In this document: one piece after another, positions 29,899-48,808 of the stretch | Layout of the letters: each line of letters begins with the position of its first letter | How positions within the stretch are numbered: the stretch's first letter is position 1 | Origin: Bacteroidales bacterium | Lineage (GTDB): Bacteria; Bacteroidota; Bacteroidia; Bacteroidales; JAADJA01 | DNA: 64,000 nucleotides | Reading direction: 5' to 3' | Assembly (NCBI GenBank): GCA_041393275.1 | Contig: JAWKKL010000001.1 | Coordinates: 65,927 to 129,926, forward strand | The notes under the pieces: model-generated | Seen by the model: only the letters and a program-made list of their open reading frames with translations | The model's database searches: none | Told to the model about the DNA's origin: nothing | Program-made: the position numbers and the translations under genes

Positions 29899-30090
29899 TT
29901 ATTCAGCCTCTGTTTTTGAATATACTAGTTTTCCTTTGTAATACAGGTCCCCATCAACATAATAACCCCTGTGATAACGGTGTACTTCACCGGTAGTCTG
30001 GCATTTAGCCAGGGTAGGAGCTTCTGCTTTATAATGGGTTCTCCTTTTGTCTCTTCTGGTTTTTGATATTTTTCTCTTCGGATGAGCCAT
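29899..30090 (-). CDS. rpmF: 50S ribosomal protein L32
   Basis: 63 aa. [19 protein letters not shown]. Confidence 0.9.
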
Positions 30091-30101
30091 TGTTGTAATA
30101 T

Positions 30102-30629
30102 TTAATTATTGTTATCTAATTTAAAATTTTTTAAAACTTCCCATCTGGGATCAATTTCCTTTTTTATAGTTGTTTGATGCAATATCGCTAATGTTTCTTT
30201 ATCACATAATAAGTTTCCCTTTTCATCTTTCCCATGAACTTTTTTAATAGGCAAGGATAAAATAATGAAATCAAAAATCACTTCTGAAATATCAATTTCG
30301 AATTCATTTTCAGGAATAATAAGGATTTCTTCGGATTCTTCTTTTCTTTCATGGCCAAGTTTAATATAGTAGTGTTCATGAATATTTGCCGGAATGATCA
30401 AATTGCCGAGGCAACGATCGCATTCCACTTCCAAGGTTCCGGTGATATTGAATTCCAGTGCAAACATTCGTTCTGTTTTATCCATTTCTAAATGAATTTG
30501 AAGCTGACAATTCAAAATATCCTCATTTTCAAACAACTCAAAGAACCGTTTTGTAATTACCCATTCAAATTGGTGGCTACCCAAATTTAATCCTTTAAAA
30601 GGAATTTTAAACGCTTTCAAATCTTTCAA
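30102..30629 (-). CDS. yceD: DUF177 (YceD-like) protein
   Basis: 175 aa. It sits in the conserved position upstream of rpmF-plsX-fabH and has a CDRCL motif. Confidence 0.7.
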
Positions 30630-30952
30630 CCTGTCTCCGTTTTAGGTAAACCAACAAGGTTTACAAAATTATATCCTGTGCTAATAACACAATGGATGTT
30701 AAATTAAACCCTTCTGATTCAACAAAGAATAAAGGGGTGCAAAGGTAAAAATATTTTTATGAATAGCAAACGAGCAAAATATTTTATAAATGGAGCAACC
30801 CGACATATAAATTTGGTGTTTTATCATAGCTAAACAACACATAATCAGTGACAATGAGTAAAAATCACCTTTTCAAATCAATTTAGAATTTCTTTGAATG
30901 TTTACAAGCGAATGTAAATGAGATTTAAATCTCAACAAGAAAATAGCAAAGA

Positions 30953-31998
30953 ATGTTTGAAGGTTTTGATATATTGAAATTGTTGGCCGGTCCTGGAATT
31001 TTTATGTCTGAGATGTCTTTAATGGAAGAATCCAAAAAAAACTTTCAGGATGGGCTTTAAAATGCTTGAACAGGTTTTATAGCACCGGCAAAATTAAATC
31101 TATATTTTCTGGAATATTAACGACCTCTATTCTTCAGAGTAGTTTTGCGGTATCGTTAATGGTGCTTGTTTTTGTGGGGGCGGGCATCATGACAATGGAA
31201 AATGCCATTGGGGTTATACTTGGCTCTAATATCGGAACTACTGTTACTGCATGGATAGTGGCTACAATTTGTTTTAAGGTAAAAATTGAAAGTTTTGCCC
31301 TGCCCTTTGTGGAACTCTCTTTCCATATCACAAGTCAAATGCATAGCTATAATGAGGCCAAATGCTTGGAGTTGGTTGATAACGAACTCGCAGTTAAAAT
31401 ACTTGAGAAAATGGATTTACATGATGTTGAATTAATTTTAAGACAGTGTAATGAGATTTTTAGCAACAATATGTTAAATGGCCTACCTGCGAAACCTGCA
31501 GCTTTATTAAAGGAAAAACTTTCTCATCCTGTTGATACTGTTGGTGCATTTATGACACCCATTTTATTAAGATTGCGAAAAGAAATTACCATTCAGGAAG
31601 CCATATCTACTAATATACGTGAAAAGGCAAACTTTTCTTCTCAGATTTTCCTGGTAGATGAAGAAGGGAAATTGGAGGGAGTTGTTAATATACACGACTT
31701 ATTGAGCCACGAAAGCACCGCAACTTTATCTTCCATAATGATTGTTGATTTTCCAAAATTTTTCGCTGATACAGATATTGCTTCCGTTGCCAATCATCCG
31801 GGATGGTACGATTTTCACGATATTCCGATAATTGATAGTTCCGAAAGGTTAATCGGTGCCTTACATTTTAAATCAACCCGGAAAGACAAACAAATTATGG
31901 ATGAAAAAGGAACAAATGAAATTATCGTTACCAGTAATGCACTGGGTGAATTGTACCGGATAGGCATGACTGGATTTTTACAAAGTGTAGGTAAATAG
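30953..31998 (+). pseudogene. Chimeric ORF: the N-terminal ~125 aa of a Na+/Pi-cotransporter (NptA family) is joined to an MgtE-N / CBS-pair module that has no membrane domain
   Basis: ATG 30953 gives MFEGFDILKLLAGPGIFMSEMSLMEESKK, then a frameshift in the A8 run at 31034-31041. SGILTTSILQSSFAVSLMVLVFVGAGIMTMENAIGVILGSNIGTTVTAWIVA is the first Na/Pi repeat. After ~31320 the sequence becomes MgtE-N-like (LAVKILEKMDLHDVELIL) followed by CBS-type sequence. Confidence 0.5.
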
Positions 31999-33339
31999 GT
32001 GAGTGAAAATTTTAAAAGCGAAAAAATGGATAAAATAAATACAATAGCTGAACAAAATCTTATCAATGAATTTCTTCTGCAGTTCCCAAGGGAGGCAGCC
32101 CTATCAATGGATTCATTTCCTTCAGAAAAAATATTGAAGTATTTGAAAAGTTTGCCTGTGGAAAAAATGGTTGAAATATTTTCTTTTTTGAATCCTGATG
32201 TGGCAGTTGAAGTCATTCAAATAATGGATGACCTTATATTTATTCAGATTTTCTCTAAAATCAACACGCAATTGGGTGCGCGTTTACTTTCCCGTTTTAG
32301 TAAAAAAAATATCCAGGGCAAATTGAGTTTACTTCCTGGCTTTATTGCCAGGGAAATACAAGACTTCCTCTCCTATCAACCTGATTCGGCTGGGTACCTG
32401 ATGGAATCCATCGTCACAACATTCTATCCTGAAAACAAAGTGGAAGACGTATTGGCAAGGATTCGGAAACTTAGCGACCGAAGAATTACATTGATTTATA
32501 TTATAAATGAAACCGGACTGCTCTTGGGGAAAATACCACTACAGGTTATTGCTATTTCCCAGCCTCATGAAAATTTGAAGGATTTAATGCAGGAGGCTCC
32601 GGCTGTCACAGCTCTGTCATCAACAGAAGATGTATTGCAGCTTCTCGATAATTGGAACCTGCTACAGATTCCAGTCACTGATATCAATGGAAAACTATTA
32701 GGAGTGATCATGAATAAATCTCTCCTCAGTGCTTCAAAACAGGAAATTACACAGGATGTTCAGGCCATGTTTGGCGCAGGCCGTGAAGAACATGCCTTAT
32801 CGAAGGTATCGGTGGCCATAAAGTCGCGACTTCCCTGGTTACAGGTAAACCTTGCCACCGCTTTCCTGGCATCGTTGGTTGTTGGTTTATTTGAAGATAC
32901 AATTGCCCAGATAACTATCCTGGCTGTATTTCTACCCGTAGTGGCCGGTCAATCGGGCAATACAGGCTCACAGGCCCTGGCCGTTACCATTCGTGGCCTT
33001 GCTTTGAGGGAGATAAGGATATCAGAGTGGTTTAGAGTAGCAAGAAAAGAAATCATGGTAGGATTGATAAATGGAATTGCTGTGGCATTAACCACGGGAA
33101 TCATTGTTTATTTTTGGACATCCTCATTAGGTATAGGAATTGTGATTGCCATTTCAATGATAATTTCGATGGTAATTGCAGGTTTTTCAGGTGCAATAAT
33201 TCCCATTGGTTTGAAAGCAATTGGCCAGGACCCTGCCACGTCATCATCCATAATATTGACTACAGTTACCGATATTTGTGGCTTTCTTAGCTTTTTAGGT
33301 TTGGCCACAGCACTTTCAACGGTACTTGGTTTTACCTAA
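31999..33339 (+). CDS. mgtE: Magnesium transporter MgtE
   Basis: 446 aa with an MgtE-N region, a CBS pair and a C-terminal TM domain. PVVAGQSGNTGSQALAVTIRGLAL is the family signature. There is a GTG at 31999 and an alternative ATG at 32026. Confidence 0.85.
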   Translation: MSENFKSEKMDKINTIAEQNLINEFLLQFPREAALSMDSFPSEKILKYLKSLPVEKMVEIFSFLNPDVAVEVIQIMDDLIFIQIFSKINTQLGARLLSRFSKKNIQGKLSLLPGFIAREIQDFLSYQPDSAGYLMESIVTTFYPENKVEDVLARIRKLSDRRITLIYIINETGLLLGKIPLQVIAISQPHENLKDLMQEAPAVTALSSTEDVLQLLDNWNLLQIPVTDINGKLLGVIMNKSLLSASKQEITQDVQAMFGAGREEHALSKVSVAIKSRLPWLQVNLATAFLASLVVGLFEDTIAQITILAVFLPVVAGQSGNTGSQALAVTIRGLALREIRISEWFRVARKEIMVGLINGIAVALTTGIIVYFWTSSLGIGIVIAISMIISMVIAGFSGAIIPIGLKAIGQDPATSSSIILTTVTDICGFLSFLGLATALSTVLGFT

Positions 33340-34903: not shown

Positions 34904-35809
34904 ATGGAAGAATTTGTAAACACCTGGATATATAATTCCACCATCGGTAAGCTGGTTGCCATCGTTATTGGCGTTGCCGTTATCTGGACCTTAATGAAAA
35001 TTCTGAAACGAAGAATTGCTGGGCCTATTCAAAGTACTGACAACCGCTACAGAACAAAAAAACTTCTCGATTTTACCGGATATTTTCTGATGATCATAAT
35101 GATCACTATTGTTTTCAGCGATAAACTTGGTGGATTAACAGTGGCTCTTGGTGTGGCCGGGGCCGGTATAGCTTTTGCCTTGCAAGAGGTGATTGCCAGT
35201 GTGGCCGGTTGGCTGGCCATTTTGTTTGCCGGCTTTTATAAAACGGGTAACAGGGTACAGCTTGGCGGTATTAAAGGGGATGTGATTGATATTAATGTTT
35301 TACGCACAACGCTCATGGAAACCGGCCAGTGGGTGGATGGTGATCTTTACAATGGCCGAATTGTGCGTATTGCCAACAGTTTTGTTTTTAAGGAGCCGGT
35401 TTTTAATTATTCTGGCGACTTTCCTTTCCTTTGGGATGAAATCAAAATTCCGGTCCAGTTTGGTTCTGACTACGATAAGGCAAGGGATCTTTTTCTAACC
35501 GTAACCCGCGAAGTAACTTCAAAAGAAACCGCAGAATCAGCGGAAACATGGAAACATATTGTCTCAAAATTTATGATTGAAAATGCCCGGACAGAACCCA
35601 TGGTTTCCCTTATTGTCAATGATAACTGGGTGGAATTTACAATCCGCTATGTGGTAAATTTTAAGAAAAGGCGAATAACCAAGGATGAGTTGTTTACCAA
35701 AATCTTAAAAGCCGTTGAAACCGGAGGCAGCCGTATTAAATTTGCCTCCGCCACATTCCAATTGGTTGAAGCGCCAGATTTTAATGTTTCAATTAAGAGT
35801 GGAAAATAA
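34904..35809 (+). CDS. MscS-family mechanosensitive channel
   Basis: 301 aa with three N-terminal TM helices, then GNRVQLGGIKGDVIDINVLRTTLMETG. Confidence 0.75.
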   Translation: MEEFVNTWIYNSTIGKLVAIVIGVAVIWTLMKILKRRIAGPIQSTDNRYRTKKLLDFTGYFLMIIMITIVFSDKLGGLTVALGVAGAGIAFALQEVIASVAGWLAILFAGFYKTGNRVQLGGIKGDVIDINVLRTTLMETGQWVDGDLYNGRIVRIANSFVFKEPVFNYSGDFPFLWDEIKIPVQFGSDYDKARDLFLTVTREVTSKETAESAETWKHIVSKFMIENARTEPMVSLIVNDNWVEFTIRYVVNFKKRRITKDELFTKILKAVETGGSRIKFASATFQLVEAPDFNVSIKSGK

Positions 35810-35832: not shown

Positions 35833-38727
35833 ATGAAAAAAACATACATTGTCATACTTTGCATGCTTATGCCTTTTCTGGTAATGTCGCAAAAATTCGA
35901 CAACAGCCAGATTACAAGCATGGTGGTAAAATTTAGACAAGACCCAAAAGGGCCCTACAAGGATATTCGCTGGTTTTGTAAAGATGGAACTACCCGGCCG
36001 CCTCAGGAACGATGCCCCGAACCGGGTGTGCAACGGGCACGCTATAAAGATGAAGTTGTTTCACTGGCTAAAACCAACCATGTTTTTCTGGGTCAAATTC
36101 TCGCAACAACTGATTTCAGCGAGTTCTGGGATGAAACCAGCTATCATTCCCGGTTAAAACAATACCAGCTTGAAAAATATTTAATAAGAACAAATGATGG
36201 TTGGATTTTGCGAAAAGCACAATATTACCGGGGCGCATTTCAGGCGGAAGATGAAGAAAACTGGGGCGTTGAATTTTTTAACTGGTTGCTGGAAGATAAC
36301 AACCGGTTGAAGCAAAATTTCTTCCTCATCCGCGAAGCCGCCAAAGATATCCCACACCAGGGTGATGATAGCAAAACCCAAATGGTTCGTGCTTTATCAA
36401 AAGAAATTTCGGATAGTGTCCAATCTTTTTTAAACATACGCATCAAAATTCATGGCCAGCCTGAAGCAACTGACATACAAACGGTAAAACAGTTCAGAGA
36501 AGCAAACAAAAACAAACTTTCGGCAACCCAGCTTAAAAAGGTGGACGAACTCATTGCTAATATGGAAATCGTTTATCAGCCGGCTAACCTGAATTCGTTG
36601 AAGAAATACCTGAAAAATATTCCTAAAGAATCCGAGGTGGCTAAATCCATCCAAACCTTAACAGACCAGTATAATACTAAATCCGGGAAGGATAAAATTA
36701 TTGATCTGGCTAATAGGCTTCTACTAATCCGAGAACAAATTACAACCATCCCAAAAAGTTCCGGACGGCTTGCCTTGCTCGATATTTCATTAAAACTCGA
36801 AGAAATCCTGTTTAGGGAGATGAAATCATGGGATAGCAAAACATTGCAAGACCTGCTATCGAAAACCTATTACCTTGGCCTGGCTTCAGCCGGGTGCGGT
36901 TACATTGAAATGTGGGAATGGTCAACCATCAAATACCATTTTGAAAAGCCCATGTATGCATCAATCTCTCTTGCGGACTTGAATAATATCCTTGAGTCTT
37001 CAAGACAACTGGTCGAATGGAGTGCCGGAATGTCAAGGGGTGTTTACAAAGATGCCATTGACCTGTTCAATGGTTTTGAACCTTTAGTCTACGGTTTTAC
37101 TGATGATAGGGTCAGGTCTTCATCCTTGCTCTATTTGGGAAACTGTGTAAGTGAATTAGGAGAATTTATTTCCCATGAAGCCGATCTTTCGAACAAAGTA
37201 ATGGATATTTCGGGACAAAGCCACATCAGGGGAATCAATCCCGGTTTTGCCATGGGTGAATTGGTGGTGTTGAATGAAATAACTGAAAATACAATTATTT
37301 CCGGGGATAAAATTTATGTGTTTGACCATCCTCCCGCAGATTTAAAGCCAGTGGCCGGTATTGCCACGGTTACCGAAGGAAATATGGTTTCTCACGTTCA
37401 GCTTCTCGCCCGTAATCTTGGCATACCCAATGCAGTTGTATCGGCTGATAACCTGGAGCAACTGAAAAAATTCAACGGAAAGAAAGTGTTTTACGCTGTA
37501 TCAAACAAAGGAACGGTTATTATGAAGCCGGCTGAACAGATGACTGCTGAGGAGAAAAAGCTGTTTGAAACAAAAAAGAGAAGTGAAGAAAAAATTACGA
37601 TTCCGGTTGACCGGATGAATTTGAAACAAACCAACATGGTAAACCTACGTGATCTAAATACAAAACAATCAGGAATCCTTTGCGGGCCAAAAGCGGCCAA
37701 TCTCGGCCAGTTAAAACTCATGTTCCCCGACCATGTGGTGGAAGGTTTTGTCATTCCGTTTGGCATTTTCAGGCAGCACATGGAACAAATCATTCCCGGC
37801 AAAAAATTATCCTATTGGGAATTCCTGAATGATATTTTTATAAAGGCAATGGACATGAGTAAGCAAGGCGAATCAGAAAATGATATTGACACCTATGTGC
37901 TTGGGGAGTTGGATGTGTTGCGAAAAGAAATAAAATCCATGAGTCTCACCCCGGAATTTATTGCAGACCTTGAAAAATCCTTTATTAACATTTTAGGAAA
38001 AAAAATTGGCGATATTCCGGTATTCCTTCGCAGCGATACAAATATGGAAGACCTGAAAGATTTTACCGGGGCAGGTTTAAATCTTACCTTATTCAATGTT
38101 GTTGATAGAGAAAAAATCCTCCAGGGAATCAAGGATGTGTGGGCATCACCTTATTCAGAGCGGAGCTATAAATGGCGTCAGCGTTATTTATTAAATCCTG
38201 AAAATGTATATCCTTCTATCCTGGTCATCCCGGCTGTGGATGTTGATTATTCGGGGGTCATGATCACCAAAGGTATTGTTACCAATAACGATGACGACCT
38301 GACCATCGCCTTTAGCCGCGGAGCAGGAGGTGCGGTCGAAGGACAAGCTGCTGAATCGTACCTGCTCAAATTTGATGGGGAGAATCTCCTGTTGTCGCCT
38401 GCGAGAGAGCCTTTTTATATCAAGCTTCCGGCCAAAGGGGGAACGGATAAAACCTTTGCCACGTTTGAGAAACCTATCCTCAGTGAAAATAACTTAATGC
38501 AATTGCGTGATTTTGCCTATAGGATTAAACGCGACATGGCTAAATTACCCGATTCAAAGTCAGAAGGCCCGTTTGATATTGAATTGGGATTTAAAGACAA
38601 TAAAATCTGGTTATTTCAGATCAGACCGTTTGTTGAAAACAAGAATGCTTTAAAAACGGAGTATTTAACTTCCATAACACCGGTAATACCCGAATCGAAA
38701 TTGATAAATTTAAACACAACACTTTAA
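35833..38727 (+). CDS. Signal-peptide-bearing PEP-utiliser family protein: unknown ~440-aa N-domain, then a His swivel (mobile) domain, then a C-terminal PPDK_N-type ATP-grasp
   Basis: MKKTYIVILCMLMPFLVMSQ. Swivel domain VAGIATVTEGNMVSHVQLLARNLGIPN, with the His codon at 37393-37395. ATP-grasp motifs CGPKAANLGQL, FLRSDTNMEDLKDFTGAGL and VWASPYSERSYKWR. Confidence 0.7.
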   Translation: MKKTYIVILCMLMPFLVMSQKFDNSQITSMVVKFRQDPKGPYKDIRWFCKDGTTRPPQERCPEPGVQRARYKDEVVSLAKTNHVFLGQILATTDFSEFWDETSYHSRLKQYQLEKYLIRTNDGWILRKAQYYRGAFQAEDEENWGVEFFNWLLEDNNRLKQNFFLIREAAKDIPHQGDDSKTQMVRALSKEISDSVQSFLNIRIKIHGQPEATDIQTVKQFREANKNKLSATQLKKVDELIANMEIVYQPANLNSLKKYLKNIPKESEVAKSIQTLTDQYNTKSGKDKIIDLANRLLLIREQITTIPKSSGRLALLDISLKLEEILFREMKSWDSKTLQDLLSKTYYLGLASAGCGYIEMWEWSTIKYHFEKPMYASISLADLNNILESSRQLVEWSAGMSRGVYKDAIDLFNGFEPLVYGFTDDRVRSSSLLYLGNCVSELGEFISHEADLSNKVMDISGQSHIRGINPGFAMGELVVLNEITENTIISGDKIYVFDHPPADLKPVAGIATVTEGNMVSHVQLLARNLGIPNAVVSADNLEQLKKFNGKKVFYAVSNKGTVIMKPAEQMTAEEKKLFETKKRSEEKITIPVDRMNLKQTNMVNLRDLNTKQSGILCGPKAANLGQLKLMFPDHVVEGFVIPFGIFRQHMEQIIPGKKLSYWEFLNDIFIKAMDMSKQGESENDIDTYVLGELDVLRKEIKSMSLTPEFIADLEKSFINILGKKIGDIPVFLRSDTNMEDLKDFTGAGLNLTLFNVVDREKILQGIKDVWASPYSERSYKWRQRYLLNPENVYPSILVIPAVDVDYSGVMITKGIVTNNDDDLTIAFSRGAGGAVEGQAAESYLLKFDGENLLLSPAREPFYIKLPAKGGTDKTFATFEKPILSENNLMQLRDFAYRIKRDMAKLPDSKSEGPFDIELGFKDNKIWLFQIRPFVENKNALKTEYLTSITPVIPESKLINLNTTL

Positions 38728-38731
38728 ATAC

Positions 38732-39988
38732 ATGAAAAAGCTAAAGTTTCTATTGCTTTCACTCCTAATTTTTGCTCTTCAGGGAGAATCTTTTGCCTAT
38801 CCCTACGACGGTTACTATATCTCCGGTATACGGCGGTTGGTCCGGCTACAGTTAATTATGATGGGTGCAATCAAAGATACAAAACCTGTTTTGGGCGCTC
38901 AGAAATCCATTATGGACATTCATCTGAATCTGATGAACGAAAAAGGCGATAGCCTTGAAGCTTTTCCAGCGACCGATCCAGCCTTACAAAAATCAATAAA
39001 CGCTCTTTTCCCATACATGCATGAAAGTTATTCGCTTTGTGTAATTGATATTACGTCGGGCAAACCTATCCGGTATGCACAGCGAAATGAAAAACGGGGC
39101 TATATGCCAGGCAGCGTAGCAAAACTTGCTGTGCTTGCAGGATTATTTAACGAACTTCAAAAGCTTTATCCCGATTCGTTTGAATTGAGGCAGCAAGCAA
39201 TGAGAAACAGGTTGGTTAGGGCCGGTAAATGGGCCAACTATGATGAACATACCGTACCATTTTTTAATCCGGAAACACAAAAATTTTACAAAGCCGTTGT
39301 CAAAGAAGGAGACACTTGTTCGCTTTACGAATGGGCCGACCATATGATCTCCGTAAGTAACAATGCAGCTGCCAGCATAGTTTGGAAAGAAGCGCTGCTT
39401 ATGCAGGCATTTGGGGCAAATTATCCACCAACAACTGAAGAAGAAGCTGAGTTTTTTAGTACCACGCCAAAATCAGAACTAACGGCAATGGCCGTGGCGG
39501 TTGTTGATGAACCGCTAAGAAATATGGGGATCACCAAGGAGGAGTTCAGGCTGGGAAGTATGTTTACTCGTGACGCCAAAAAAATCGTTCCGGGCGCCGG
39601 TGGTACCATCGCCAGCCCTTATGGATTGATGAAATACCTTGTAGCCATGGAAAGAGGAAAAATTGTTGACCCTGAATCAAGCCTTGAAATCAAACGGCTG
39701 ATGTATGCCACCGACCGCCGGATACGGTATGCCGCCTCTACTGCCCTGACCGATGCCGCCGTTTATTTTAAATCGGGTAGTTTGTATAAATGCAAACCGG
39801 AAGAGGATTTTAAATGTGGAAAATATATGGGTAATGTAGAAAACTATATGAACTCGGTAGCGATTGTCGAACAACCCGACGGGACAACCTACATGGTCAC
39901 CATGATGTCGAATGTCCTGAAAAAAAATTCAGCTAATGATCATTTTGCCCTGGCTTCTCAGATTGATAAAGTGGTAAGAAAAAAGTGA
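38732..39988 (+). CDS. Exported class-A beta-lactamase-fold serine hydrolase (function unknown)
   Basis: Signal peptide MKKLKFLLLSLLIFALQGESFA. The motifs SVAK (SxxK), SVSNN (SxN) and KSGS (KTG-like) occur in the right order. It starts 4 nt after the upstream gene. Confidence 0.65.
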   Translation: MKKLKFLLLSLLIFALQGESFAYPYDGYYISGIRRLVRLQLIMMGAIKDTKPVLGAQKSIMDIHLNLMNEKGDSLEAFPATDPALQKSINALFPYMHESYSLCVIDITSGKPIRYAQRNEKRGYMPGSVAKLAVLAGLFNELQKLYPDSFELRQQAMRNRLVRAGKWANYDEHTVPFFNPETQKFYKAVVKEGDTCSLYEWADHMISVSNNAAASIVWKEALLMQAFGANYPPTTEEEAEFFSTTPKSELTAMAVAVVDEPLRNMGITKEEFRLGSMFTRDAKKIVPGAGGTIASPYGLMKYLVAMERGKIVDPESSLEIKRLMYATDRRIRYAASTALTDAAVYFKSGSLYKCKPEEDFKCGKYMGNVENYMNSVAIVEQPDGTTYMVTMMSNVLKKNSANDHFALASQIDKVVRKK

Positions 39989-40017: not shown

Positions 40018-41184
40018 ATGAGGCAGGACATTTTCATCGGTTTCTTTGATTTATTTATTTTTCTGGGCGTATTTCAGGGAATATTTCTAGCCTGGTTTTT
40101 TATCAAGAATGGCAAAAGTGAGCAACGCGCCAATTTATATCAGGGCCTGCTCTTGTTATTTTTAAGTCTTGGAATATTTGAGGAATTGCTTAACAATACA
40201 GGGTATATTGTTCAAATGTTGCCAATTTCAAACTTTACCGAACCCCTGGCTTTAGCTTTTGCTCCACTTGTCTACTTGTATATTATTAAATCTCTAAATC
40301 CTGACAAAAATGAAAAGGTTTGGCCACATTTTATACTTTCAGTATTCTGGTTGTTTTATATGTATTTTTATTGGGCTCAGGCTAATGATCTAAAGTATAA
40401 TTCCTATATCGGCTCCAAACATCCTGATTGGGAATTCCTTGATGTTGTGCCAAAAATGGACGAGGATCCATTAGGGATAAGGTATTATTTCAATGAAATG
40501 CTGGCCGTCCAATTTATAATTTACATTAGAGTTTCAATGGTTAAGTTGTTACGAAAATTCAGATCACTGAACCAACAGTTGTTTAATACTAAAAATGAGT
40601 TATTAATCACGTTACGTAATACAATTATTCATTTTATTATCATCATTTCTGTATTTCTTATAACCAAACTTTATTTTGGAATGAGGAGTGATATTGGTGG
40701 TTATTGGATTGCAACCTATATTTCATTTATGATCTATGTAACAAGTTATCAGGTTTTAAACAGGTCTGAGTTTTTTAATCATCCAAGTTCTTTTATGGCT
40801 TTCCCTATGCCTAAATATCAAAAATCTTCTCTGTCGGAAGATAATAAGGAATTGATTTTATCCAAAATCAAAAAAGAGATGGAAAGTCGAACTTATTTTT
40901 CAAATAATTTAGCTTCACTTTCAGGGTTGGCAAAACAAATTAATGAGTCATCACATCATGTATCACAGGTAATAAATGAAAAACTAAACAAGAATTTTTT
41001 TGAATTGCTGGCCGAATACAGAGTGGAATACGCACAAAAGCTTATCAGGGAAGACAAAGAAATAAAACTGACCGTGGAAGAGCTGGCGGAAATGGTCGGA
41101 TATAATTCAAAATCGTCTTTCAATACTGCATTTAAAAAAATAACTTCCTTAACACCCACCGAATATAGAAAATCAATATGTTGA
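40018..41184 (+). CDS. AraC-family transcriptional regulator with an N-terminal multi-TM domain
   Basis: 388 aa. The C-terminal HTH region is LAKQINESSHHVSQVINEKL...VGYNSKSSFNTAFKKITSLTPTEYRK. Confidence 0.75.
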   Translation: MRQDIFIGFFDLFIFLGVFQGIFLAWFFIKNGKSEQRANLYQGLLLLFLSLGIFEELLNNTGYIVQMLPISNFTEPLALAFAPLVYLYIIKSLNPDKNEKVWPHFILSVFWLFYMYFYWAQANDLKYNSYIGSKHPDWEFLDVVPKMDEDPLGIRYYFNEMLAVQFIIYIRVSMVKLLRKFRSLNQQLFNTKNELLITLRNTIIHFIIIISVFLITKLYFGMRSDIGGYWIATYISFMIYVTSYQVLNRSEFFNHPSSFMAFPMPKYQKSSLSEDNKELILSKIKKEMESRTYFSNNLASLSGLAKQINESSHHVSQVINEKLNKNFFELLAEYRVEYAQKLIREDKEIKLTVEELAEMVGYNSKSSFNTAFKKITSLTPTEYRKSIC

Positions 41185-41320
41185 TCTTAGTAATTGATAA
41201 TCTTTCTCTTAATCAAATTATAATGTTCTTCCCGATAAGGCCGTACATCGTTCCGATAGGCTAAGTCGTTGCAATTGGCCAAGTGATATTAGGTTTGCCA
41301 GAAATTCAAATCATAATATC

Positions 41321-42550
41321 ATGACAACGGAAAAAATTCAGAAAACAGATCAGAAATCAGAACGTCAATATTACATTGATTGGTTACGTATACTTCTTAT
41401 TTTTAGTGTATTTCTTTTCCATATTGGAATGATTTTTAATTCCTGGGGCTGGCACGTGAAAAATGATGTGACTGCAGGTTCAAAAGGAGTTTTATGGTAC
41501 ATTATGGTCTTTATGCACGAGTGGCGTATGCCATTGCTGATCCTGATATCTGGTGCCGGTACTTATTTTGCCTTGGGTAAACGAACATCCTGGCAATACC
41601 TCGGTGAACGATTTAAACGACTTTTCATACCCTTGTTAGTTGGTGTATTTACGTTAGTTCCTGTTCAGGTATACATTGAGAAATCGGCTCAATTTGGTTC
41701 TTTGATGGAATTTTATCCACATATGTTTGAAGGAATATACCCAAAGGGTAATTTCAGCTGGCATCACTTGTGGTTTATTGCTTATTTATTTTTCATTGCC
41801 CTGATCATTGCCCCATTTTTAAATTTTTTCAGAAGTGGACGATTTGACCTTTTTGTTGGCAGACTGGCCAGGATCGTATCCAAAAAGTTTGGTGCAAATA
41901 TTTTTGTGGTCCCGATGCTTTTATCACAACTCCTTCTCCGTCCTTATTTTCCTGAAAATACACATGGTTTATTCGATGATTGGGCAGAAGTAATGTACTT
42001 TTTGATATTTTTCCTTTCGGGATTCATATTGCTTTCAAACAATAAGATAACTGAATCAATAAGGAAACAAAAATGGTTTTTTTTAGTGGAAGCATTAATC
42101 ACAACCGTTGTACTGGTAACTGTTCCATATATGATAGGTGAAAAAGCCGGCAACCTGCTTTGGGATACCCTGGAACCCTTTGTTGCCTTTTCGTGCGGAC
42201 TGACAGCCATCGGTTTTGCAAAACAATATTTGACCAAAAACAACAAACTTCGTAAACTTGCCAATGAAGCTATTTACCCGTTCTATTTATTGCATCAACC
42301 GTTGATCGTTGTGGTTGGTTATTATATGGTGCAATGGAATATATCTGTTTTTGCGAAAGTACTTTTTATCACCCTCACATCCTTTACCCTAACTGTTGCA
42401 ATCTATTGGTATCTGATCAGACCGTATAATGCCTTGAGGATAATATTCGGGATGAAAATGAACAGGATAGAAAAGGGGGACGAAATACATGGTTTGTCTC
42501 CTTCCCCTGTATCCCTGCTGCAAAATAAAAACATAATCCTGAAAAAGTAA
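41321..42550 (+). CDS. Acyltransferase family 3 (OpgC-like) integral membrane protein
   Basis: 409 aa. YYIDWLRILLIFSVFLFHIGMIF plus about 10 TM helices. Confidence 0.7.
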   Translation: MTTEKIQKTDQKSERQYYIDWLRILLIFSVFLFHIGMIFNSWGWHVKNDVTAGSKGVLWYIMVFMHEWRMPLLILISGAGTYFALGKRTSWQYLGERFKRLFIPLLVGVFTLVPVQVYIEKSAQFGSLMEFYPHMFEGIYPKGNFSWHHLWFIAYLFFIALIIAPFLNFFRSGRFDLFVGRLARIVSKKFGANIFVVPMLLSQLLLRPYFPENTHGLFDDWAEVMYFLIFFLSGFILLSNNKITESIRKQKWFFLVEALITTVVLVTVPYMIGEKAGNLLWDTLEPFVAFSCGLTAIGFAKQYLTKNNKLRKLANEAIYPFYLLHQPLIVVVGYYMVQWNISVFAKVLFITLTSFTLTVAIYWYLIRPYNALRIIFGMKMNRIEKGDEIHGLSPSPVSLLQNKNIILKK

Positions 42551-45397
42551 TTATGTTTTCAACAGCTCAAACAAAGCTTGCTTTGCAAAATTTTCGATCT
42601 TGGGATTTTTATTATTTGTAAAATTAGCAACAAGTGGAATATACTTTTTATCTTTAATTTGAGCAATCAAATAAAGGGTCGCTAAATTTATTTTTACATC
42701 ATGACCGGAAAGCAACATCGAAAGACACTGAAATTCATCCGGTATTTTCAGGTTCAGGTTTTTAATGGCCTCCTCCGAAAGTGTATCCAGCAGTGCTGTT
42801 TCAACAATGGGAACCAACACCCTCTTTAAATTGGTCTCTAACAGGTTGTCTAAAAACTCTACAGCATTTATGCGCATTTCCGGCTTTTTACTTTGTATTC
42901 CCTGGTAAATATTTAAAATATCATCAAAGGGATATTTTAATCCCAACAATCTAAAAATCCGTTCCAGGTTTCCATCCAGCCGACGTTCCAACAGTACGAT
43001 CAAACTTTTTCGAGCCTCAAGTTCTTTTTCGTTTTGCTCCACACCGAAGTTTTTTTCCTCTATATCCTTTACTGTGGATTGGGTATAAAGTGCGGTTAAT
43101 GTTTCAAGATACAAATGGGCTTCATCCAAAATCCGCCTGATCACATCCTTTTGATGGAAGCGAAGATTAGGGTGGTTAATTTTCAATGTATTCAACGAAC
43201 GGAGAGCTTCCATGCGAAGGCCGATATCAGGATGATCGAGCAAAGAAAATAACAGTTCGACCGATTGCTGTGTCCCAATTTGTTCTAAAATGGAAGGAAC
43301 ATGATGCAATAGTTCAATGCCCCATAAATCTTTTTGGATGATTTCAGCAAAATTTTCAACAATGGCCGGACCATAATTTACAAGCGCCATTTTAGCCGAT
43401 GTCCTGAATTCTTCCTGGATAAGAAAATCAGATAAACAATCGATGAATTCAGGACTTAAGGTATTTCCAGCTGATATGATAGCCTGATTTACGATGTCCG
43501 GGTCTTCATCCTTCATGAAGTTTTTGATCTCAATATAAAAAATAGCGATATTAGCTTGTGCAATCGCTTTTAGAATAATCTTTTTTCTGAATTTGATTTC
43601 CTCAGGATCTTTTAACCCAGCCAGGCTATTTATCCTTTTTTCGATGAGTTTTTCAAGGTCAAATTTATTCCTGAGATCAGGATTATTCCGTGATTCAAGG
43701 GCGAGGCTTACAAGGGCAGCACCCCGCACCCTGTAATCTTTATCATGAAGATATTTTGTCAAAAATTCTACCCGGTTTTCGGGAACATGAGCAATGAGGT
43801 ATTCAAAAGCCGCTGATTTTACTTGTTGATTCGGGTCATTGATCAAAAGTAAGACGCTATCTACACTATGTTGATTTCTGAAAAAATACAAACATTGTAG
43901 TGCTTCCGCACGGATGTCAGCCGATGCATGGTCAAGCAATTTGCTCACATCATCAAATAATCTGTCATCAGGGAATTCTTTTATTTTGCGCAGGATGTAT
44001 ATAATTTGAGTCTCAGTTCCCTTCTGCAATACTTTCCGCAGTCCGCTCAGGACAGATTCTTTTGATAAATCCAGCGAGCCTTTTTTCTCATGGTTTCCTT
44101 TTGTTTGTTCAATTTTTAATTTAAACGACCGCACATACTCAAACCGGATTTTTCGTGAAAAATATATCCAAACAAAGAAAAGGGCAAGAATTATAAGGCT
44201 GATAAAGCGGGTGGAAAGATCAAGCCCGTTCACCACAAAAATAAGGATTATCCCGCTAATTCCTGTGGCCGCGCTATCAATAAAAACATCAATAAAACTT
44301 TTTGTTTGGTTTTTAATCTCAAGGGGTATCGGAAGGGCCATAAGCTCAATGGCTGATTTATTTACCGATTGTTTCAGGCTCCCATCTATAAGTTTTAAAA
44401 TAATAACAGCCCAAAGTTCAGGAAAAATCAAAACGAGAAATGCCCCTAGCATGATGCCGAATGGAAGAAAAAAAAGCGATGTGCCTACGCCAAATACACC
44501 TACAATCCTTCGTGTTATAAAAAGCTGAATGATAAGTGAAATGAGGTTAAAGGTCGAAAACCAAAACCCAAAGAAGGCGGTCAAATCATCGGAGTTGGGA
44601 ATTTTTAATGAAGCGATGGCACTGAACTGATAGTCGACAAGCTTTGCGACGATGACACTGATCCCAATTATGGTCGCCAGGTAAGTCAGGTGTTTCGATT
44701 TTCTGATGAGGGCGATGGGGTTAGAATCAAATCCCTTAATCCGTTTTTTGCGTTGAAATTTTGTTTGCGTTGGTAAAACCTCTTTTTTCCATATGGTTTG
44801 TGTAATCGGAATACAAAATGAAAGTAAGATTGCCGCCACAAAAGGGAGGGTTTCGCTACCGATTTGTTCGGCAATGAGCGATGTAAGGTAACCCCCGAAT
44901 ATGCCTCCTGCAATTGCCCCGGCTCCAATAAATCCGAAAAGACGTTTGGCTTCCCTGGCATTAAAAACAATGTTTGCAAGTACCCAAAATTGAGAAGCTG
45001 ATAGTACCGCAAAAATGGCCACCCATATATAAAACAGGTATAAAACCCAGCCCTCAAGGAAATTAAGCCGTAACAATACCCCAAAAACAAAAAGACTCGT
45101 AACAGACCACAGCATGGTTCGTGTAATGATGATGTTAAGGGGCATACGTGATAATAACCTGGAATATAACAATGAAACCAAACCAGCAAAAACAGCAACA
45201 AGTAAAAAAGCATTGGGCAGGTTTTCGGCTCCCATTTTGGCAAGGAACAATCCGTTGACAGCGGGTTTGACTATGAGAAGTGTGGAAATGATCAGGAAGA
45301 TGTTCAATTGCATCAATACTGCACGGCGGTACTCTCCCTCCCGAATATCAAATACATTCCTGAGCAAATGCTCTGCATATTTTTTGATGGTCTCCAT
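42551..45397 (-). CDS. TLC/AAA-family nucleotide (ATP/ADP) translocase-like membrane domain fused to a ~500-aa HEAT-repeat domain
   Basis: 948 aa. FWVLANIVFNAREAKRLFGFIGAGAIAGGIFGG matches the TLC hallmark (FW..AN....EAKR.Y). There are about 11-12 TM helices. C-terminal repeats include LLDHASADIRAEAL, LHDKDYRVRGAAL and LLDHPDIGLRMEAL. Confidence 0.65.
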   Translation of the reverse strand: METIKKYAEHLLRNVFDIREGEYRRAVLMQLNIFLIISTLLIVKPAVNGLFLAKMGAENLPNAFLLVAVFAGLVSLLYSRLLSRMPLNIIITRTMLWSVTSLFVFGVLLRLNFLEGWVLYLFYIWVAIFAVLSASQFWVLANIVFNAREAKRLFGFIGAGAIAGGIFGGYLTSLIAEQIGSETLPFVAAILLSFCIPITQTIWKKEVLPTQTKFQRKKRIKGFDSNPIALIRKSKHLTYLATIIGISVIVAKLVDYQFSAIASLKIPNSDDLTAFFGFWFSTFNLISLIIQLFITRRIVGVFGVGTSLFFLPFGIMLGAFLVLIFPELWAVIILKLIDGSLKQSVNKSAIELMALPIPLEIKNQTKSFIDVFIDSAATGISGIILIFVVNGLDLSTRFISLIILALFFVWIYFSRKIRFEYVRSFKLKIEQTKGNHEKKGSLDLSKESVLSGLRKVLQKGTETQIIYILRKIKEFPDDRLFDDVSKLLDHASADIRAEALQCLYFFRNQHSVDSVLLLINDPNQQVKSAAFEYLIAHVPENRVEFLTKYLHDKDYRVRGAALVSLALESRNNPDLRNKFDLEKLIEKRINSLAGLKDPEEIKFRKKIILKAIAQANIAIFYIEIKNFMKDEDPDIVNQAIISAGNTLSPEFIDCLSDFLIQEEFRTSAKMALVNYGPAIVENFAEIIQKDLWGIELLHHVPSILEQIGTQQSVELLFSLLDHPDIGLRMEALRSLNTLKINHPNLRFHQKDVIRRILDEAHLYLETLTALYTQSTVKDIEEKNFGVEQNEKELEARKSLIVLLERRLDGNLERIFRLLGLKYPFDDILNIYQGIQSKKPEMRINAVEFLDNLLETNLKRVLVPIVETALLDTLSEEAIKNLNLKIPDEFQCLSMLLSGHDVKINLATLYLIAQIKDKKYIPLVANFTNNKNPKIENFAKQALFELLKT

Positions 45398-45468: not shown

Positions 45469-46386
45469 TTAATTCTTCAGCACCAGTTCGATTTTGGTGA
45501 CCAGTTCGCGGCATATTTTTTCACCCTCCGCATCTTCGATGAGCGTAACCAGGATATACCTTCTTCCGTCAGGTCCCCAAACAAGAACCGAATCCGTATG
45601 AAAATTTTGCCAGGTTCCCGATTTCCTGAATATTTTTGCCCTTGGGGCCACCTTGTCAAGTGTATTTACAAATTTATGATGCAGCTCTGGATCAACCATC
45701 ATATCAAGCATGATTTTCGACCGTTCAGGACTTACCAGTTTTCCGTAGGCAAGCATATAATAATACCTGCAAACCTGCGAAACAGTGGCTGCATGGCTAA
45801 GCCCTTTCATTGGCTCCGGATACCGTTCGCCATATTTGGCATAACGTTTTCCTACCCATAAACCACCGCCATAATCTTCGTCGTACAGGTCATATTTTGG
45901 GTCGGTTAAAACACTTTCAATCTTTTCGTATCCTAACCTGTCAATCATTCGGGTAGAGGCTGCATTATCAGATTTGCTGATCATTAATCGTAAATCATTT
46001 CTTATTTCATCGGATTCTTCCATTTCTCCTTTTTCAATGGCATCTTCAGCGGCCAATAAAACGGCAATTTTTGGCAGGCTGGCAGCATACATCATTACAT
46101 TCCCATTTACTCTTGCATATTTTACATTTTCAGGATCGCGCAAGTCCACAAGGCCCACCGCCATTTTTTTTTGTTCAATCAATCGTTTCCACTTTTTATT
46201 TTTATTTAATTCAGTAATTAACTTTTCCTGAAAGGGTAAATCAACAAGATTCCTGAGGGGTTTGATATCGGAAATAGCGAGTGGAAGTGTATCAAAATTT
46301 GGTTTGATCTCATCACTTTTTTGTGTACAGCCTGTAGTTCCAAAAAGAATTAGCAAAACAATGGAAATCAGTAATTTGTTTTTCAT
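45469..46386 (-). CDS. Lipoprotein with a class-A beta-lactamase fold (serine hydrolase, function unknown)
   Basis: Lipobox LFGTTGC. SLPK (SxxK), SKSDN (SDN) and KSGT (KTG-like). It lies upstream of, and probably in one operon with, the TLC::HEAT gene. Confidence 0.65.
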   Translation of the reverse strand: MKNKLLISIVLLILFGTTGCTQKSDEIKPNFDTLPLAISDIKPLRNLVDLPFQEKLITELNKNKKWKRLIEQKKMAVGLVDLRDPENVKYARVNGNVMMYAASLPKIAVLLAAEDAIEKGEMEESDEIRNDLRLMISKSDNAASTRMIDRLGYEKIESVLTDPKYDLYDEDYGGGLWVGKRYAKYGERYPEPMKGLSHAATVSQVCRYYYMLAYGKLVSPERSKIMLDMMVDPELHHKFVNTLDKVAPRAKIFRKSGTWQNFHTDSVLVWGPDGRRYILVTLIEDAEGEKICRELVTKIELVLKN

Positions 46387-46666: not shown

Positions 46667-47728
46667 ATGAATCTACTTGATGGTGTTAAATCAGCTGAAA
46701 TCAGAATAACAAAAGAAGTACAAGCCCTGAGTGATTTGGTGAAGGATACCACCCTGTCTGTAGTTGACCGGATTGAATCCTTTGAAGATATCATGAATAT
46801 GGAAATCGGTGATACGTCTTTACACAGGGCCCGCAACCTTGAAAGAGAATTAAATATCCGCCAGTTGTATATAAAATATGAAGGTGAAAATCCTTCAGGC
46901 ACGCAAAAGGACAGAATTGCCTTTGCTCAGGTTCACGATGCTTTCCGCAGAAATTATGAAATTATATCCCTGGCCACATGCGGAAACTACGGCGTAGCCG
47001 TTGCTTATGCCGCTCATCTGGCCGGATTGAAGTGCAAAATATTTATTCCTGAATCGTATCATACAGAGCGCATAAAAGAGATGGAACATTTTAATGCGGA
47101 AATCATTCGGCTGTCCGGTTCGTATGAAGACATAGTTACTGAATCAAGCCGGCTTGCTTACGCCAATGAATGGTACGATGCAAATCCGGGGGGGGCAAAT
47201 ACACCACTGCAAATTTCAGCCTATGCCGAAATTGCCAATGAAATTTATGACCAGTTGCGCGATGCCCCAAAATATATTGCAGCACCGGTTTCAAACGGAA
47301 CCTTACTGGCTGGCGTTTATCGTGGGTTTGTGAGCCTTTATAAACGAGGAAAAACATCAAGGATACCAAAATTTATTGCGGGTTCGGCTGCTTTTAAAAA
47401 TCCTATCATTACATCTTTTAAAGCAGGTCTTGAGGAATGTAAAGATATTGACCCAAAACAAATAAAAGAAACAGCCATTAACGAACCATTGATCAATTGG
47501 CATAGCTTTGATGGCGATGAGGCCCTTTACGCCATCCGACAATCAGATGGGGAAGCACACCACATTAGCGATAAGAAAATGCGTGAAATGAGTTCTTTTT
47601 TATTAAAAAAAGAAGGCTACAGAATATTACCGGCTTCCACTTCAGGCTTAATTGCCCTGCTTGAAATGCATGAAAAAAAAGAAATGATAAATGACAGATA
47701 TGTGGCTATATTAACAGGAAGAAGATAA
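46667..47728 (+). CDS. Fold-type II PLP-dependent enzyme (threonine synthase / cysteine synthase-like)
   Basis: 353 aa. The PLP-lysine context is YEGENPSGTQKDRIAF. The glycine-rich loop is APVSNGTLLAG. Confidence 0.7.
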   Translation: MNLLDGVKSAEIRITKEVQALSDLVKDTTLSVVDRIESFEDIMNMEIGDTSLHRARNLERELNIRQLYIKYEGENPSGTQKDRIAFAQVHDAFRRNYEIISLATCGNYGVAVAYAAHLAGLKCKIFIPESYHTERIKEMEHFNAEIIRLSGSYEDIVTESSRLAYANEWYDANPGGANTPLQISAYAEIANEIYDQLRDAPKYIAAPVSNGTLLAGVYRGFVSLYKRGKTSRIPKFIAGSAAFKNPIITSFKAGLEECKDIDPKQIKETAINEPLINWHSFDGDEALYAIRQSDGEAHHISDKKMREMSSFLLKKEGYRILPASTSGLIALLEMHEKKEMINDRYVAILTGRR

Positions 47729-47730
47729 AC

Positions 47731-48804
47731 ATGGAAACAAAAAAAATAACAACAGTATATTGCGAGGGGGCATACAACACAACCAATGGCAAAACCGCGC
47801 ATGGATTAGTTCGCTTAACAGAAAGATATGATATCCAGTCGGTAATAGATTCCCGTTATGCAGGCCAGGATGCGGGCATGGCACTGGATGGAAAAAATAA
47901 TGGTATTCCCATTGTTGGCTCTTTAGAAGAAGCGATGAAAGTGAATGACAACAAAAAACCATCCCATTTTGTTGTGGGCCTGGCCCCCGATGGCGGGAGA
48001 TTGGATAAGGCCGCAAGGCAGGATGTAAAAGCTGCCATCAAATTGGGCTTAAGCGTTGATTCGGGTTTACACGATTACCTGACCGATGACCCGGAAGTTA
48101 TGAAATTGGCCACTGAGGCTAATGTTCATATACATGATATTAGAAAACCTGCGGCAGTTAAAGACCTCCACTTTTTTACAGGAAATATAGAAAAAGTTAA
48201 AGCTTTAAAAATAGCCGTTTTAGGAACTGATTCAGCCGTTGGTAAAAGAACCACTGCATGGCGGGTTGTATTCGGCTTCAGGGAGGCCGGTTACAAGGCT
48301 GAGTTGATTGGTACCGGCCAGACAGCCTGGCTTCAGGGAGCCAAATATAGCATGGTGATGGACTCAGTGGTCAATGATTTTGTTTCAGGCGAAATTGAAC
48401 ATGCCGTTTATTCATGCTGGGAAAATGAAAAACCCGACGTGATTGTGCTGGAAGGTCAGGGAAGTTTGATGAACCCGGCCTATCCCGGAGGATTTGAATT
48501 ATTAGCCGCCGGCCGGCCAGATATAGTAATCCTTCAACATGCCCCGGCAAGGCTTGAATACGATGGATTTCCCGGTTACCCACTACATCCCATTGATCAC
48601 CAGATCCGTGCTATTGAAGTCCTCTCGGGGAAAAAAGTAGTAGCCATTACGGTAAATCACGAAGACTTAAGAGCTGACCAGATTGATGAAGTCTGCCGGA
48701 GAATTGAAGCTGAAACCGGCCTCCCGACGACTGATGTCTTAGTTCATGGTCAGGAAAAACTTATAAAAGCATTACTCCCTTATTTAAAAATAAAACAGCA
48801 TTAG
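47731..48804 (+). CDS. DUF1611-family protein (DgcN-like)
   Basis: 357 aa. KIAVLGTDSAVGKRTTA and VLEGQGSLMNPAYPG are typical of DUF1611. It starts 2 nt after the PLP gene. Confidence 0.6.
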   Translation: METKKITTVYCEGAYNTTNGKTAHGLVRLTERYDIQSVIDSRYAGQDAGMALDGKNNGIPIVGSLEEAMKVNDNKKPSHFVVGLAPDGGRLDKAARQDVKAAIKLGLSVDSGLHDYLTDDPEVMKLATEANVHIHDIRKPAAVKDLHFFTGNIEKVKALKIAVLGTDSAVGKRTTAWRVVFGFREAGYKAELIGTGQTAWLQGAKYSMVMDSVVNDFVSGEIEHAVYSCWENEKPDVIVLEGQGSLMNPAYPGGFELLAAGRPDIVILQHAPARLEYDGFPGYPLHPIDHQIRAIEVLSGKKVVAITVNHEDLRADQIDEVCRRIEAETGLPTTDVLVHGQEKLIKALLPYLKIKQH

Positions 48805-48808
48805 AAGT

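Follow-up and report, generated by a model that had tools for sequence, protein, structure and literature searches.

Can an enzyme that consumes ATP operate outside the cytoplasm, and where would its ATP come from? In the textbook view, the Gram-negative periplasm contains no ATP, and the energy for folding, lipoprotein sorting, lipopolysaccharide transport and peptidoglycan cross-linking comes from the cytoplasm or is stored in pre-activated bonds. The question is raised by a 64,000-nt stretch of the genome of a Bacteroidales bacterium (GCA_041393275.1, contig JAWKKL010000001.1, positions 65,927-129,926 of the forward strand), the whole of which is referred to here as the window. It contains gene A, which encodes a 964-aa histidine-swivel dikinase with a Sec-type leader. 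Gene A belongs to a conserved four-gene module, together with two genes for exported proteins of the penicillin-binding protein (PBP)/beta-lactamase fold (gene B and blac2) and a gene for a membrane carrier of the TLC/NTT family fused to HEAT repeats (NTT-HEAT). We put the probability at about one half that the module is a periplasmic phosphorylation system of the glucan water dikinase (GWD) type, in which the dikinase and the two exported serine enzymes operate with ATP supplied by the carrier. The original prediction for this locus, made from the sequence of the window without database searches, concerned genes A and B; blac2 (45469-46386) and the NTT-HEAT gene (42551-45397) are additions to it.

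Domain anatomy and catalytic motifs of the dikinase

The features of gene A and its product, with the evidence for each, are:

35833..38727, plus strand: gene A, exported His-swivel dikinase, 964 aa (open reading frame list, Pfam, homologues, AF2 model)
35833..35889, plus strand: Sec/SPase I signal peptide, aa 1-19, with the predicted cut between VMS and QK exposing Gln20 (leader conservation, Q-rule)
35893..37212, plus strand: N-domain, aa 21-460, the presumed acceptor-binding or phosphotransfer site (AF2 model)
37213..37530, plus strand: phospho-histidine swivel domain, aa 461-566 (Pfam PF00391, phmmer against 8a8e)
37630..38655, plus strand: C-terminal PPDK_N-type ATP-grasp, aa 600-941 (Pfam, Foldseek, profile search)

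The open reading frames (ORFs) on which the original prediction was built, gene A and the adjacent gene B (418 aa), were recovered by script, as were all the motifs quoted for them. Pfam places PEP-utilizers (PF00391) at aa 504-544 and PPDK_N (PF01326) at aa 617-941 (E 1.2e-25; cut-off 27 bits), so that the His domain lies upstream of the ATP-grasp, as had been read from the motifs. The PF00391 score of 21.1 bits is just below the cut-off of 23.1; the same family is on record for many relatives of gene A. A phmmer search against the PDB aligned aa 467-545 with the His domain, and aa 682-939 with the ATP-grasp, of PEP synthase 8a8e, which is also matched by the A1 profile (E 5.7e-27). Pfam returned no match to PEP-utilizers_C in this protein.

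The catalytic His521 is encoded by CAC at 37393-37395, within TEGNMVSHVQLLARNLGIP, which starts at aa 514, and the ATP-grasp contains the motifs CGPKAANLGQL (aa 617), RSDTNMEDL (aa 733) and FTGAGL (aa 744). The protein has the two hallmarks of the His-swivel dikinase superfamily, a PPDK_N-type ATP-grasp with intact nucleotide and Mg ligands and, despite the sub-threshold PF00391 score, a mobile phospho-His domain with the (T/S)H motif. Residue invariance was assessed in alignments of 44 orthologues for gene A and 31 for gene B. The residues that never vary in the former include H521, C49, C61, K620, the RSDTNMEDL block and the pairs D915/E917 and Q929/R931. The features of both genes are not due to chance, because their catalytic and motif residues are invariant across the orthologues.

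The AF2 model of the complete protein, built on the 44 sequences (pLDDT 80, pTM 0.73), has the following layout after the leader: a small beta element with a pair of Cys residues, an all-alpha region extending to residue ~450, the swivel domain (466-566) and the ATP-grasp (~600-940). In a Foldseek comparison of this model with the PDB, the ATP-grasp alone aligned, the best matches being rifampin phosphotransferase 5hv1 (E 1.3e-13), HpeI 9goj and PEP synthase 2ols.

More than 1275 homologues of gene A were found, with a near-constant length of ~964 aa; the Cys motif, SH(V)QLLAR and RSDTN.ED recur in nearly every full-length member. A one-genome-per-species scan yielded at least 568 species with a relative of the dikinase. 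The best 80, all of them Bacteroidota, served as the related loci for comparison and include the cultured Maribacter, Winogradskyella, Pricia, Algibacter, Aquimarina, Lutibacter, Sediminicola and Sunxiuqinia. A second clade, with ~28% identity in the N-domain, comprises Desulfonema ishimotonii, Desulfocurvibacter africanus, Syntrophobacterales, Myxococcota, Tectomicrobia and Guyparkeria/Gammaproteobacteria.

Export of the dikinase

Is the dikinase located where its leader suggests? The product of gene A starts with MKK, followed by a hydrophobic core and then by VMS and Gln20. The N-termini of the homologues vary freely in sequence, and nearly all consist of a K/R-containing start, a hydrophobic core and '(A/S)Q(K)'. 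Conservation of the leader among orthologues had been proposed as a check on the original prediction. Under a strict rule, which demands a hydrophobic 10-mer scoring at least 1.8 with K/R before it, a leader was detected in 104 of 112 close orthologues, 62 of 70 distant cluster representatives and 99 of 110 members of the second clade; most of the relatives that fail the rule still show a hydrophobic core or resemble truncated start calls. Gln20 is invariant in the gene A alignment and directly follows the hydrophobic core, in line with the Bacteroidetes Q-rule, whereby cleavage by signal peptidase I exposes a Gln (PMC5837995). The protein has the charged start, the hydrophobic core and the Gln at position +1 that mark Sec/SPase I-exported proteins of Bacteroidota. 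Because the leader is kept in ~90% or more of the ~290 full-length relatives and is followed by the Q-rule Gln20, export is well supported, and the protein is very probably extracytoplasmic, that is, periplasmic. Predicted export is further supported by the leaders of the partner proteins and by the invariant pair Cys49 (in WFCKDG, aa 47) and Cys61 (in ERCPEPG, aa 59), which are probably disulfide-bonded.

It is very improbable that the protein instead remains in the cytoplasm, either held by an uncleaved anchor on the cytoplasmic face or translated from an internal Met. A few relatives are indeed called without a leader (for example, P0358). Against this, the K/R before the hydrophobic segment predicts an N-in/C-out orientation, both Gln20 and the Cys pair are invariant, and leaders or lipoboxes are also seen on the partners from all phyla that were sampled. 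An internal start, one of the ways in which the prediction of export had been expected to fail if wrong, is unlikely because conservation begins upstream of Met30, the first internal Met usable as a start.

Two relatives depart from the common pattern. P0284, which is full-length and has a called start far enough upstream to accommodate a leader, has neither the Cys pair nor a clear leader; P0331 has no Cys pair, and its called start is too near the conserved motif to judge the leader. Both could be rare cytoplasmic forms, or their starts could have been miscalled. The joint absence of the Cys pair and the leader, in very few sequences, would fit a periplasmic disulfide.

An N-terminal domain without a match in Pfam or the PDB

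The N-domain consists of a small beta element, which contains Cys49 and Cys61, followed by an all-alpha domain. Modeled alone with AF2, it folds confidently (pLDDT 84, pTM 0.81), and a Foldseek search of the PDB with the model produced no match (best E 0.15, TM <0.2). Likewise, aa 21-460 had no match in Pfam even at E <=10, and the profile of the N-domain had none in the PDB. The original description of these 440 residues as an unknown domain is borne out by the searches of Pfam and the PDB.

Searched with phmmer against 1.84 billion cluster representatives, the N-domain itself was found in 467 clusters at E <=1e-3 and in 177 at E <=1e-30. In all 467 representatives, its first residue falls near positions 25-60 of a protein that is ~930-1040 aa long, and because of this constant N-terminal position the dikinase family can be considered to have one fixed architecture; the shorter matches look like gene fragments. 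The N-domain would define a new substrate-binding domain for dikinase chemistry.

One sub-branch (P0248, P0287, P0296, P0298 and P0304) is pseudo-dikinase-like: it retains the leader, the Cys motif and the N-domain and has lost the catalytic His and the nucleotide motifs of the ATP-grasp. The existence of such proteins implies that the N-domain has a function of its own. It also lends something to a reading that we regard as highly improbable, namely that the family are not kinases at all and either bind or sense nucleotides or catalyze the opposite reaction, in which AMP, Pi and a phosphorylated envelope compound would yield ATP that the NTT carrier then takes up. Import of ATP is what characterized NTTs do (PMC5381601). 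The invariance of the catalytic His and of the Mg and nucleotide ligands in nearly all members speaks against this reading, and there is no known high-energy periplasmic phosphoryl donor to drive ATP synthesis.

A module conserved across phyla

Which genes accompany the dikinase? The other members of the module in the window are:

38732..39988, plus strand: gene B, exported beta-lactamase-fold protein with SxxK/SxN/KSG, 418 aa (ORF, Pfam, motifs)
42551..45397, minus strand: NTT-HEAT protein, 948 aa (Pfam TLC and HEAT_2, profile against NTT structures)
45469..46386, minus strand: blac2, second exported beta-lactamase-fold protein, 305 aa, with a lipoprotein-type leader ...TTGC (Pfam, motifs)

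Every protein of the window was compared with the six-frame ORFs of the 80 related loci. The conserved neighbours of the dikinase are gene B, NTT-HEAT and blac2, which are present, respectively, in 52, 50 and 49 of the 52 informative Bacteroidota loci (those in which 9 kb or more of sequence follows the dikinase gene). All-against-all clustering of the ORFs of the 80 loci revealed no fifth conserved gene; the other recurrent clusters are ORFs that overlap the conserved genes in other strands or frames.

The TAA of gene A (38725-38727) and the ATG of gene B (38732) are separated by 4 nt, and in many loci the two genes overlap by 4 nt or lie within a few nt of each other, which argues for co-translation. 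The blac2 gene is located upstream of the NTT-HEAT gene in the same orientation. Scans for sigma-70 promoters, terminators and Bacteroidetes-type promoters performed no better than on shuffled sequence, so the operon structure is deduced from gene spacing and synteny only.

Both exported partners match Pfam Beta-lactamase2 (PF13354), gene B with E 1.6e-10 and blac2 with E 1.4e-19, and carry the class A beta-lactamase motifs SxxK, S(D)N and K(T/S)G in order; the hydrolase fold suggested for the partner by the original prediction is a penicillin-binding/beta-lactamase fold. Gene B contains SVAK at 128, SNN at 209 and KSG at 347, with S128/K131, S209/N211 and K347-S348-G349 invariant, along with a Cys pair of its own (Cys354/Cys362), also invariant. 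In blac2, the invariant motifs are SLPK (S103/K106), SxN (S139/N141) and KSG (K255-G257). A leader is present in 75 of 76 gene B orthologues and in 56 of 57 blac2 orthologues, and the orthologues of both proteins in the distant loci also start with hydrophobic, leader-like N-termini.

The module extends over Bacteroidota, Desulfobacterota, Myxococcota and Gammaproteobacteria. Outside the main clade, the contexts of 11 members of the dikinase family were inspected (L081-L084, L086-L092), and gene B is present in 10 of them. Four loci combine the dikinase, gene B and blac2 with a HEAT-less TLC protein of 395-448 aa: L081 (Desulfovibrionales metagenome-assembled genome), L082 (metagenome contig), L090 (Desulfonema ishimotonii) and L092 (Guyparkeria). 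In the Myxococcota locus L091, these three genes are found beside a gene for a 1038-aa protein (L091:4805-7921, minus strand), whose membrane domain is colinear with the TLC domain of the window, including FW...R(E/Q)AKRLF, and is followed by a C-terminal cyclic-nucleotide-binding domain. Desulfocurvibacter africanus (L089) has the dikinase and gene B only. In L084, the sole partner is a 521-aa protein (L084:6325-7890, minus strand) with a blac2-like C-terminal half, and the genes for B and the transporter are absent nearby; the ~260-aa N-terminal extension of this protein has no Pfam match. The core of the module is the dikinase with one or two PBP-fold proteins, joined in most lineages by a transporter, usually of the rare TLC family.

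Could two beta-lactamase-type hydrolases and an exported kinase akin to rifampin phosphotransferase form an antibiotic-inactivation unit, directed at an envelope-targeting drug? The class A beta-lactamase/PBP fold of gene B and blac2, with SxxK, SxN and KSG intact, and the rifampin phosphotransferases that head the structural matches of the ATP-grasp would be in keeping with such a unit, which we nevertheless consider improbable. The NCBIfam scores are far below the curated cut-offs of the resistance families, with 61 bits for RIF_Ptrans_rph in gene A against a cut-off of 999, and 16.8 and 19 bits for bla_class_A in gene B and blac2, respectively, against a cut-off of 200. Furthermore, the N-domain is unlike the rifampin-binding domain, no full-length copy of the dikinase was found among 72,556 plasmids, and a chromosomal module whose gene content is conserved across phyla (as is the gene order within Bacteroidota) looks more like a housekeeping function of the envelope than like acquired resistance.

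The carrier as a possible source of ATP

NTT-type carriers are usually seen as hallmarks of energy parasites and plastids. The 948-aa NTT-HEAT protein combines a TLC/AAA-family membrane domain at aa ~1-430 (nt ~44108-45397), with the signature FW..AN....EAKR.F, and a HEAT-repeat domain (nt ~42554-44078). Pfam identifies TLC (PF03219) at aa 113-421, with 36.9 bits against a cut-off of 21, and HEAT_2/HEAT at aa 486-740. The protein matches the solved plastid and bacterial ATP/ADP carriers, and a profile of the TLC domains associated with the module matches the NTT structures 9j3n (E 1.3e-32) and 9j3j (E 1.1e-27). A hydropathy scan detected 11 segments, with a K/R-rich N-terminus and central loop, and the HEAT domain is probably cytoplasmic because an MFS-like N-in topology would place it there. 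With the HEAT repeats located C-terminal to the NTT domain, the protein belongs to the NTT-HEAT fusion clade. Such fusions are monophyletic and widespread in free-living bacteria, and their function is not known (Major, Embley and Williams 2017, PMC5381601); no function has been assigned to NTT-HEAT in the literature that we searched.

By analogy with its relatives, the TLC protein of the module would transport nucleotides. That it supplies ATP is suggested by two considerations: the substrates of characterized TLC/NTT proteins are nucleotides, chiefly ATP and ADP, and TLC travels with the dikinase across at least four phyla. In the scheme that we favor, the inner-membrane carrier would exchange cytoplasmic ATP for a periplasmic adenine nucleotide. 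The C-terminal ATP-grasp would bind the ATP and pyrophosphorylate His521. From there, the swivel domain would hand the phosphoryl group on to an envelope substrate bound by the all-alpha N-domain, phosphorylating one of its hydroxyl or enol groups, with AMP and Pi as by-products. Gene B and blac2 would act on the same substrate stream, most plausibly on D-Ala-D-Ala-like or peptidoglycan-derived compounds; a substrate of this kind is suggested by the presence of two PBP-fold partners with intact serine motifs. The cytoplasmic HEAT or cyclic-nucleotide (cNMP)-binding domain could regulate the carrier and would be suited to gate the loss of ATP. Of the elements of this scheme, the domain content, the intact motifs, the export signals, the spread of the module over phyla and the NTT-family membership of the carrier have been observed, and the dikinase chemistry, the direction and substrate of transport and the nature of the acceptor are inferred.

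Several points weigh against this scheme. We know of no precedent for the export of ATP by an NTT. The NTTs characterized so far take up nucleotides or swap ATP for ADP (PMC5381601), and the dikinase would release AMP, not ADP. ATP could leak out of the periplasm through outer-membrane porins. Two distant loci (L083:1883-3376 and L086:8525-10045, both on the minus strand) carry, in place of TLC, orthologous MFS_1 transporters with 37% identity, and L087, L089 and L084 have no adjacent transporter. On the enzyme side, the Pfam score of the His domain falls just under the curated cut-off, and the Pfam, Foldseek and PDB profile searches of the N-domain named neither an acceptor nor a role. In L088, too, a transporter is missing next to the dikinase, on a contig that is too short to be informative. 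The candidate assignments of the MFS_1 proteins as AmpG or TLC were ruled out by NCBIfam and Pfam.

Some of the same observations can be accommodated if the dikinase is periplasmic and the transporter moves something other than its ATP, such as the acceptor, the phosphorylated product or AMP, with the donor obtained otherwise, for instance, as extracellular or leaked ATP. The replacement of TLC by MFS_1 and the loci lacking a transporter support this alternative, in which the carrier could work as an importer or exchanger like the characterized NTTs (PMC5381601), and the cytoplasmic cluster of the D-amino-acid or murein-peptide type that sometimes adjoins the module (see below) would fit the import of a product. 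We nonetheless find this alternative unlikely, although it is the most probable of those considered. All characterized TLC/NTT substrates are nucleotides or dinucleotides, and the TLC proteins of the module match ATP/ADP carriers strongly. An ATP-grasp enzyme, once exported, clearly lacks one thing, a supply of nucleotide, and TLC, uncommon in free-living bacteria, recurs beside the dikinase in four phyla.

Extended beyond the window, ATP supply by the carrier leads to a broader proposal, which we make tentatively: diderms of several phyla may export ATP to the periplasm through NTT/TLC carriers gated by HEAT or cNMP-binding domains, powering a dikinase that acts on an envelope substrate, probably related to peptidoglycan and handled by two PBP-fold enzymes. 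If so, the module would encode both an ATP-driven enzyme system of the periplasm and the energy supply line that serves it, and NTT-HEAT proteins of free-living bacteria would have their first function. The common occurrence of NTT-type carriers in free-living bacteria, a question open since 2017 (PMC5381601), would then be explained as well. A conserved exported ATP-grasp enzyme tied to an NTT-family transporter offers a concrete, testable counter-example to the ATP-free periplasm, and the module points to an unrecognized phosphorylation of an envelope component.

Genes around the module

In the window, gene B and NTT-HEAT are separated by a lineage-specific insertion, which lies outside the conserved module and was annotated with Pfam and NCBIfam:

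40018..42550, plus strand: lineage-specific insertion between gene B and NTT-HEAT
40018-41184, plus strand: membrane-anchored AraC-type regulator with N-terminal transmembrane segments
41321-42550, plus strand: OpgC/MdoC-like Acyl_transf_3 protein

No orthologue of the AraC-type regulator or of the Acyl_transf_3 protein occurs among the 80 related loci. Upstream, a gene for an MscS-like mechanosensitive channel (34904-35809, plus strand) ends 23 nt before the dikinase gene, an arrangement shared only by L006, the closest relative. The MscS and OpgC-like genes together might suggest a role in the metabolism of osmoregulated glucans; this reading was rejected because these neighbours are not conserved. 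Across the 80 loci, there is no conservation of the MscS, beta-CASP, AraC or Acyl_transf_3 neighbours. PADLOC returned no match to a defence system for the four module proteins, except for a generic HEAT match.

On the other side, the module adjoins a four-gene cluster (46667-52220, plus strand). Its products are a threonine-synthase-like PLP enzyme (NF004996, 428 bits, above the cut-off), a DUF1611 protein resembling DgcN, a 782-aa protein that ends in a creatininase/MftE-like domain and an MR_MLE enzyme similar to L-Ala-D/L-Glu epimerases. At least two of these genes have orthologues adjoining the module in L006, L016, L039 (upstream) and L066, and the epimerase-like gene only in L068; the arrangement differs among these five Bacteroidota loci. 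The cytoplasmic cluster hints at a link between the module and murein peptides or D-amino acids, which we take only as a lead.

Farther upstream, an ORF encoding a Na/Pi-cotransporter fragment with a CBS domain (31066-31998, plus strand) abuts a complete MgtE gene (31999-33339, plus strand). GC content falls to 0.337 in 30001-32000, and this ORF could be what is left of a gene or else a fusion of an unusual kind.

Comparison with known systems

How much of this is new? The module was not described in the literature searched for a periplasmic dikinase or for a function of NTT-HEAT. New, relative to that literature, is the combination of an extracytoplasmic site, an N-domain unmatched in the PDB and Pfam and a conserved gene set that also comprises two PBP-fold proteins and an NTT-family carrier. 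The catalyst itself is not of a new kind. The order of domains in gene A (N-domain, His domain, ATP-grasp) was originally read as a permutation that known family members do not explain. The plant and algal enzymes GWD and phosphoglucan water dikinase (PWD), the closest analogues by described layout, begin with carbohydrate-binding modules and end in a PPDK-like nucleotide-binding domain (PMC5575247), and the catalytic His of potato GWD is His992 (PMC12892837), which, taking the two reports together, would lie upstream of the nucleotide domain. The linear order of gene A is not unprecedented, because GWD and PWD already place an acceptor-binding N-terminal region first, the His next and the nucleotide domain last. 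The claim of a novel permutation is accordingly abandoned, while those of export, an unfamiliar N-domain and a beta-lactamase-fold partner stand. Gene A encodes a member of a known superfamily that shares the GWD/PWD order, and the comparisons below support the view that no described member of the family explains it.

Like GWD and PWD, the product of gene A has no PEP/pyruvate TIM-barrel, and the analogy implies the reaction ATP + acceptor-OH + H2O -> AMP + acceptor-phosphate + Pi. Unlike them, it lacks the starch-binding modules CBM45 and CBM20, in place of which is the all-alpha domain that matches neither Pfam nor the PDB. The known enzymes are plastidial or cytosolic, whereas this one is bacterial, Sec-exported and probably disulfide-bonded, and its gene shares a module with those of PBP-fold proteins and of an NTT.

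PEP synthase and pyruvate phosphate dikinase (PPDK) share with gene A a homologous ATP-grasp and a homologous swivel His domain. They consist of an ATP-grasp, a His domain and a C-terminal TIM barrel and are cytoplasmic; in gene A, the order of the first two is reversed and a PEP/pyruvate-binding domain is missing. The NCBIfam equivalog scores for PEP synthase and PPDK are 82-93 bits, against cut-offs of 598-883 (93 versus 598; 82 versus 740).

Rifampin phosphotransferase (RPH) provides the best structural match for the ATP-grasp and has the same three-domain logic with a separate acceptor-binding domain. In that enzyme, which is cytoplasmic, the order is ATP-grasp, rifampin-binding domain and His domain, and the model of the gene A N-domain has no Foldseek match to RPH chains or to the rifampin-binding domain. 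The family score given above places gene A outside the rifampin phosphotransferases.

Gene B and blac2 resemble class A beta-lactamases in their Beta-lactamase2 match and invariant SxxK, SxN and KSG motifs. The nearest solved relative of blac2 is Tll2115 of Thermosynechococcus (PDB 2j9o; E 0.026 and 0.0018), which we take to be a DD-peptidase-type PBP-A; this match is very distant (E 0.002-0.03). Gene B differs from class A beta-lactamases in having an additional region with YPxDG..GIRRL at the N-terminus and a Cys pair of its own, and its profile retrieved no solved relative from the PDB.

The NTT-HEAT fusions described in PMC5381601 have exactly the architecture of the 948-aa protein of the window. 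The 1038-aa protein of Myxococcota recalls the NTT-HEAT-cNBD fusions of the same study (Major et al. 2017), but no HEAT match was returned for it. That paper mentions no linked exported dikinase, whereas here a conserved neighbourhood ties the dikinase to the carrier, and HEAT-less and cNMP-binding versions take the same position in other phyla.

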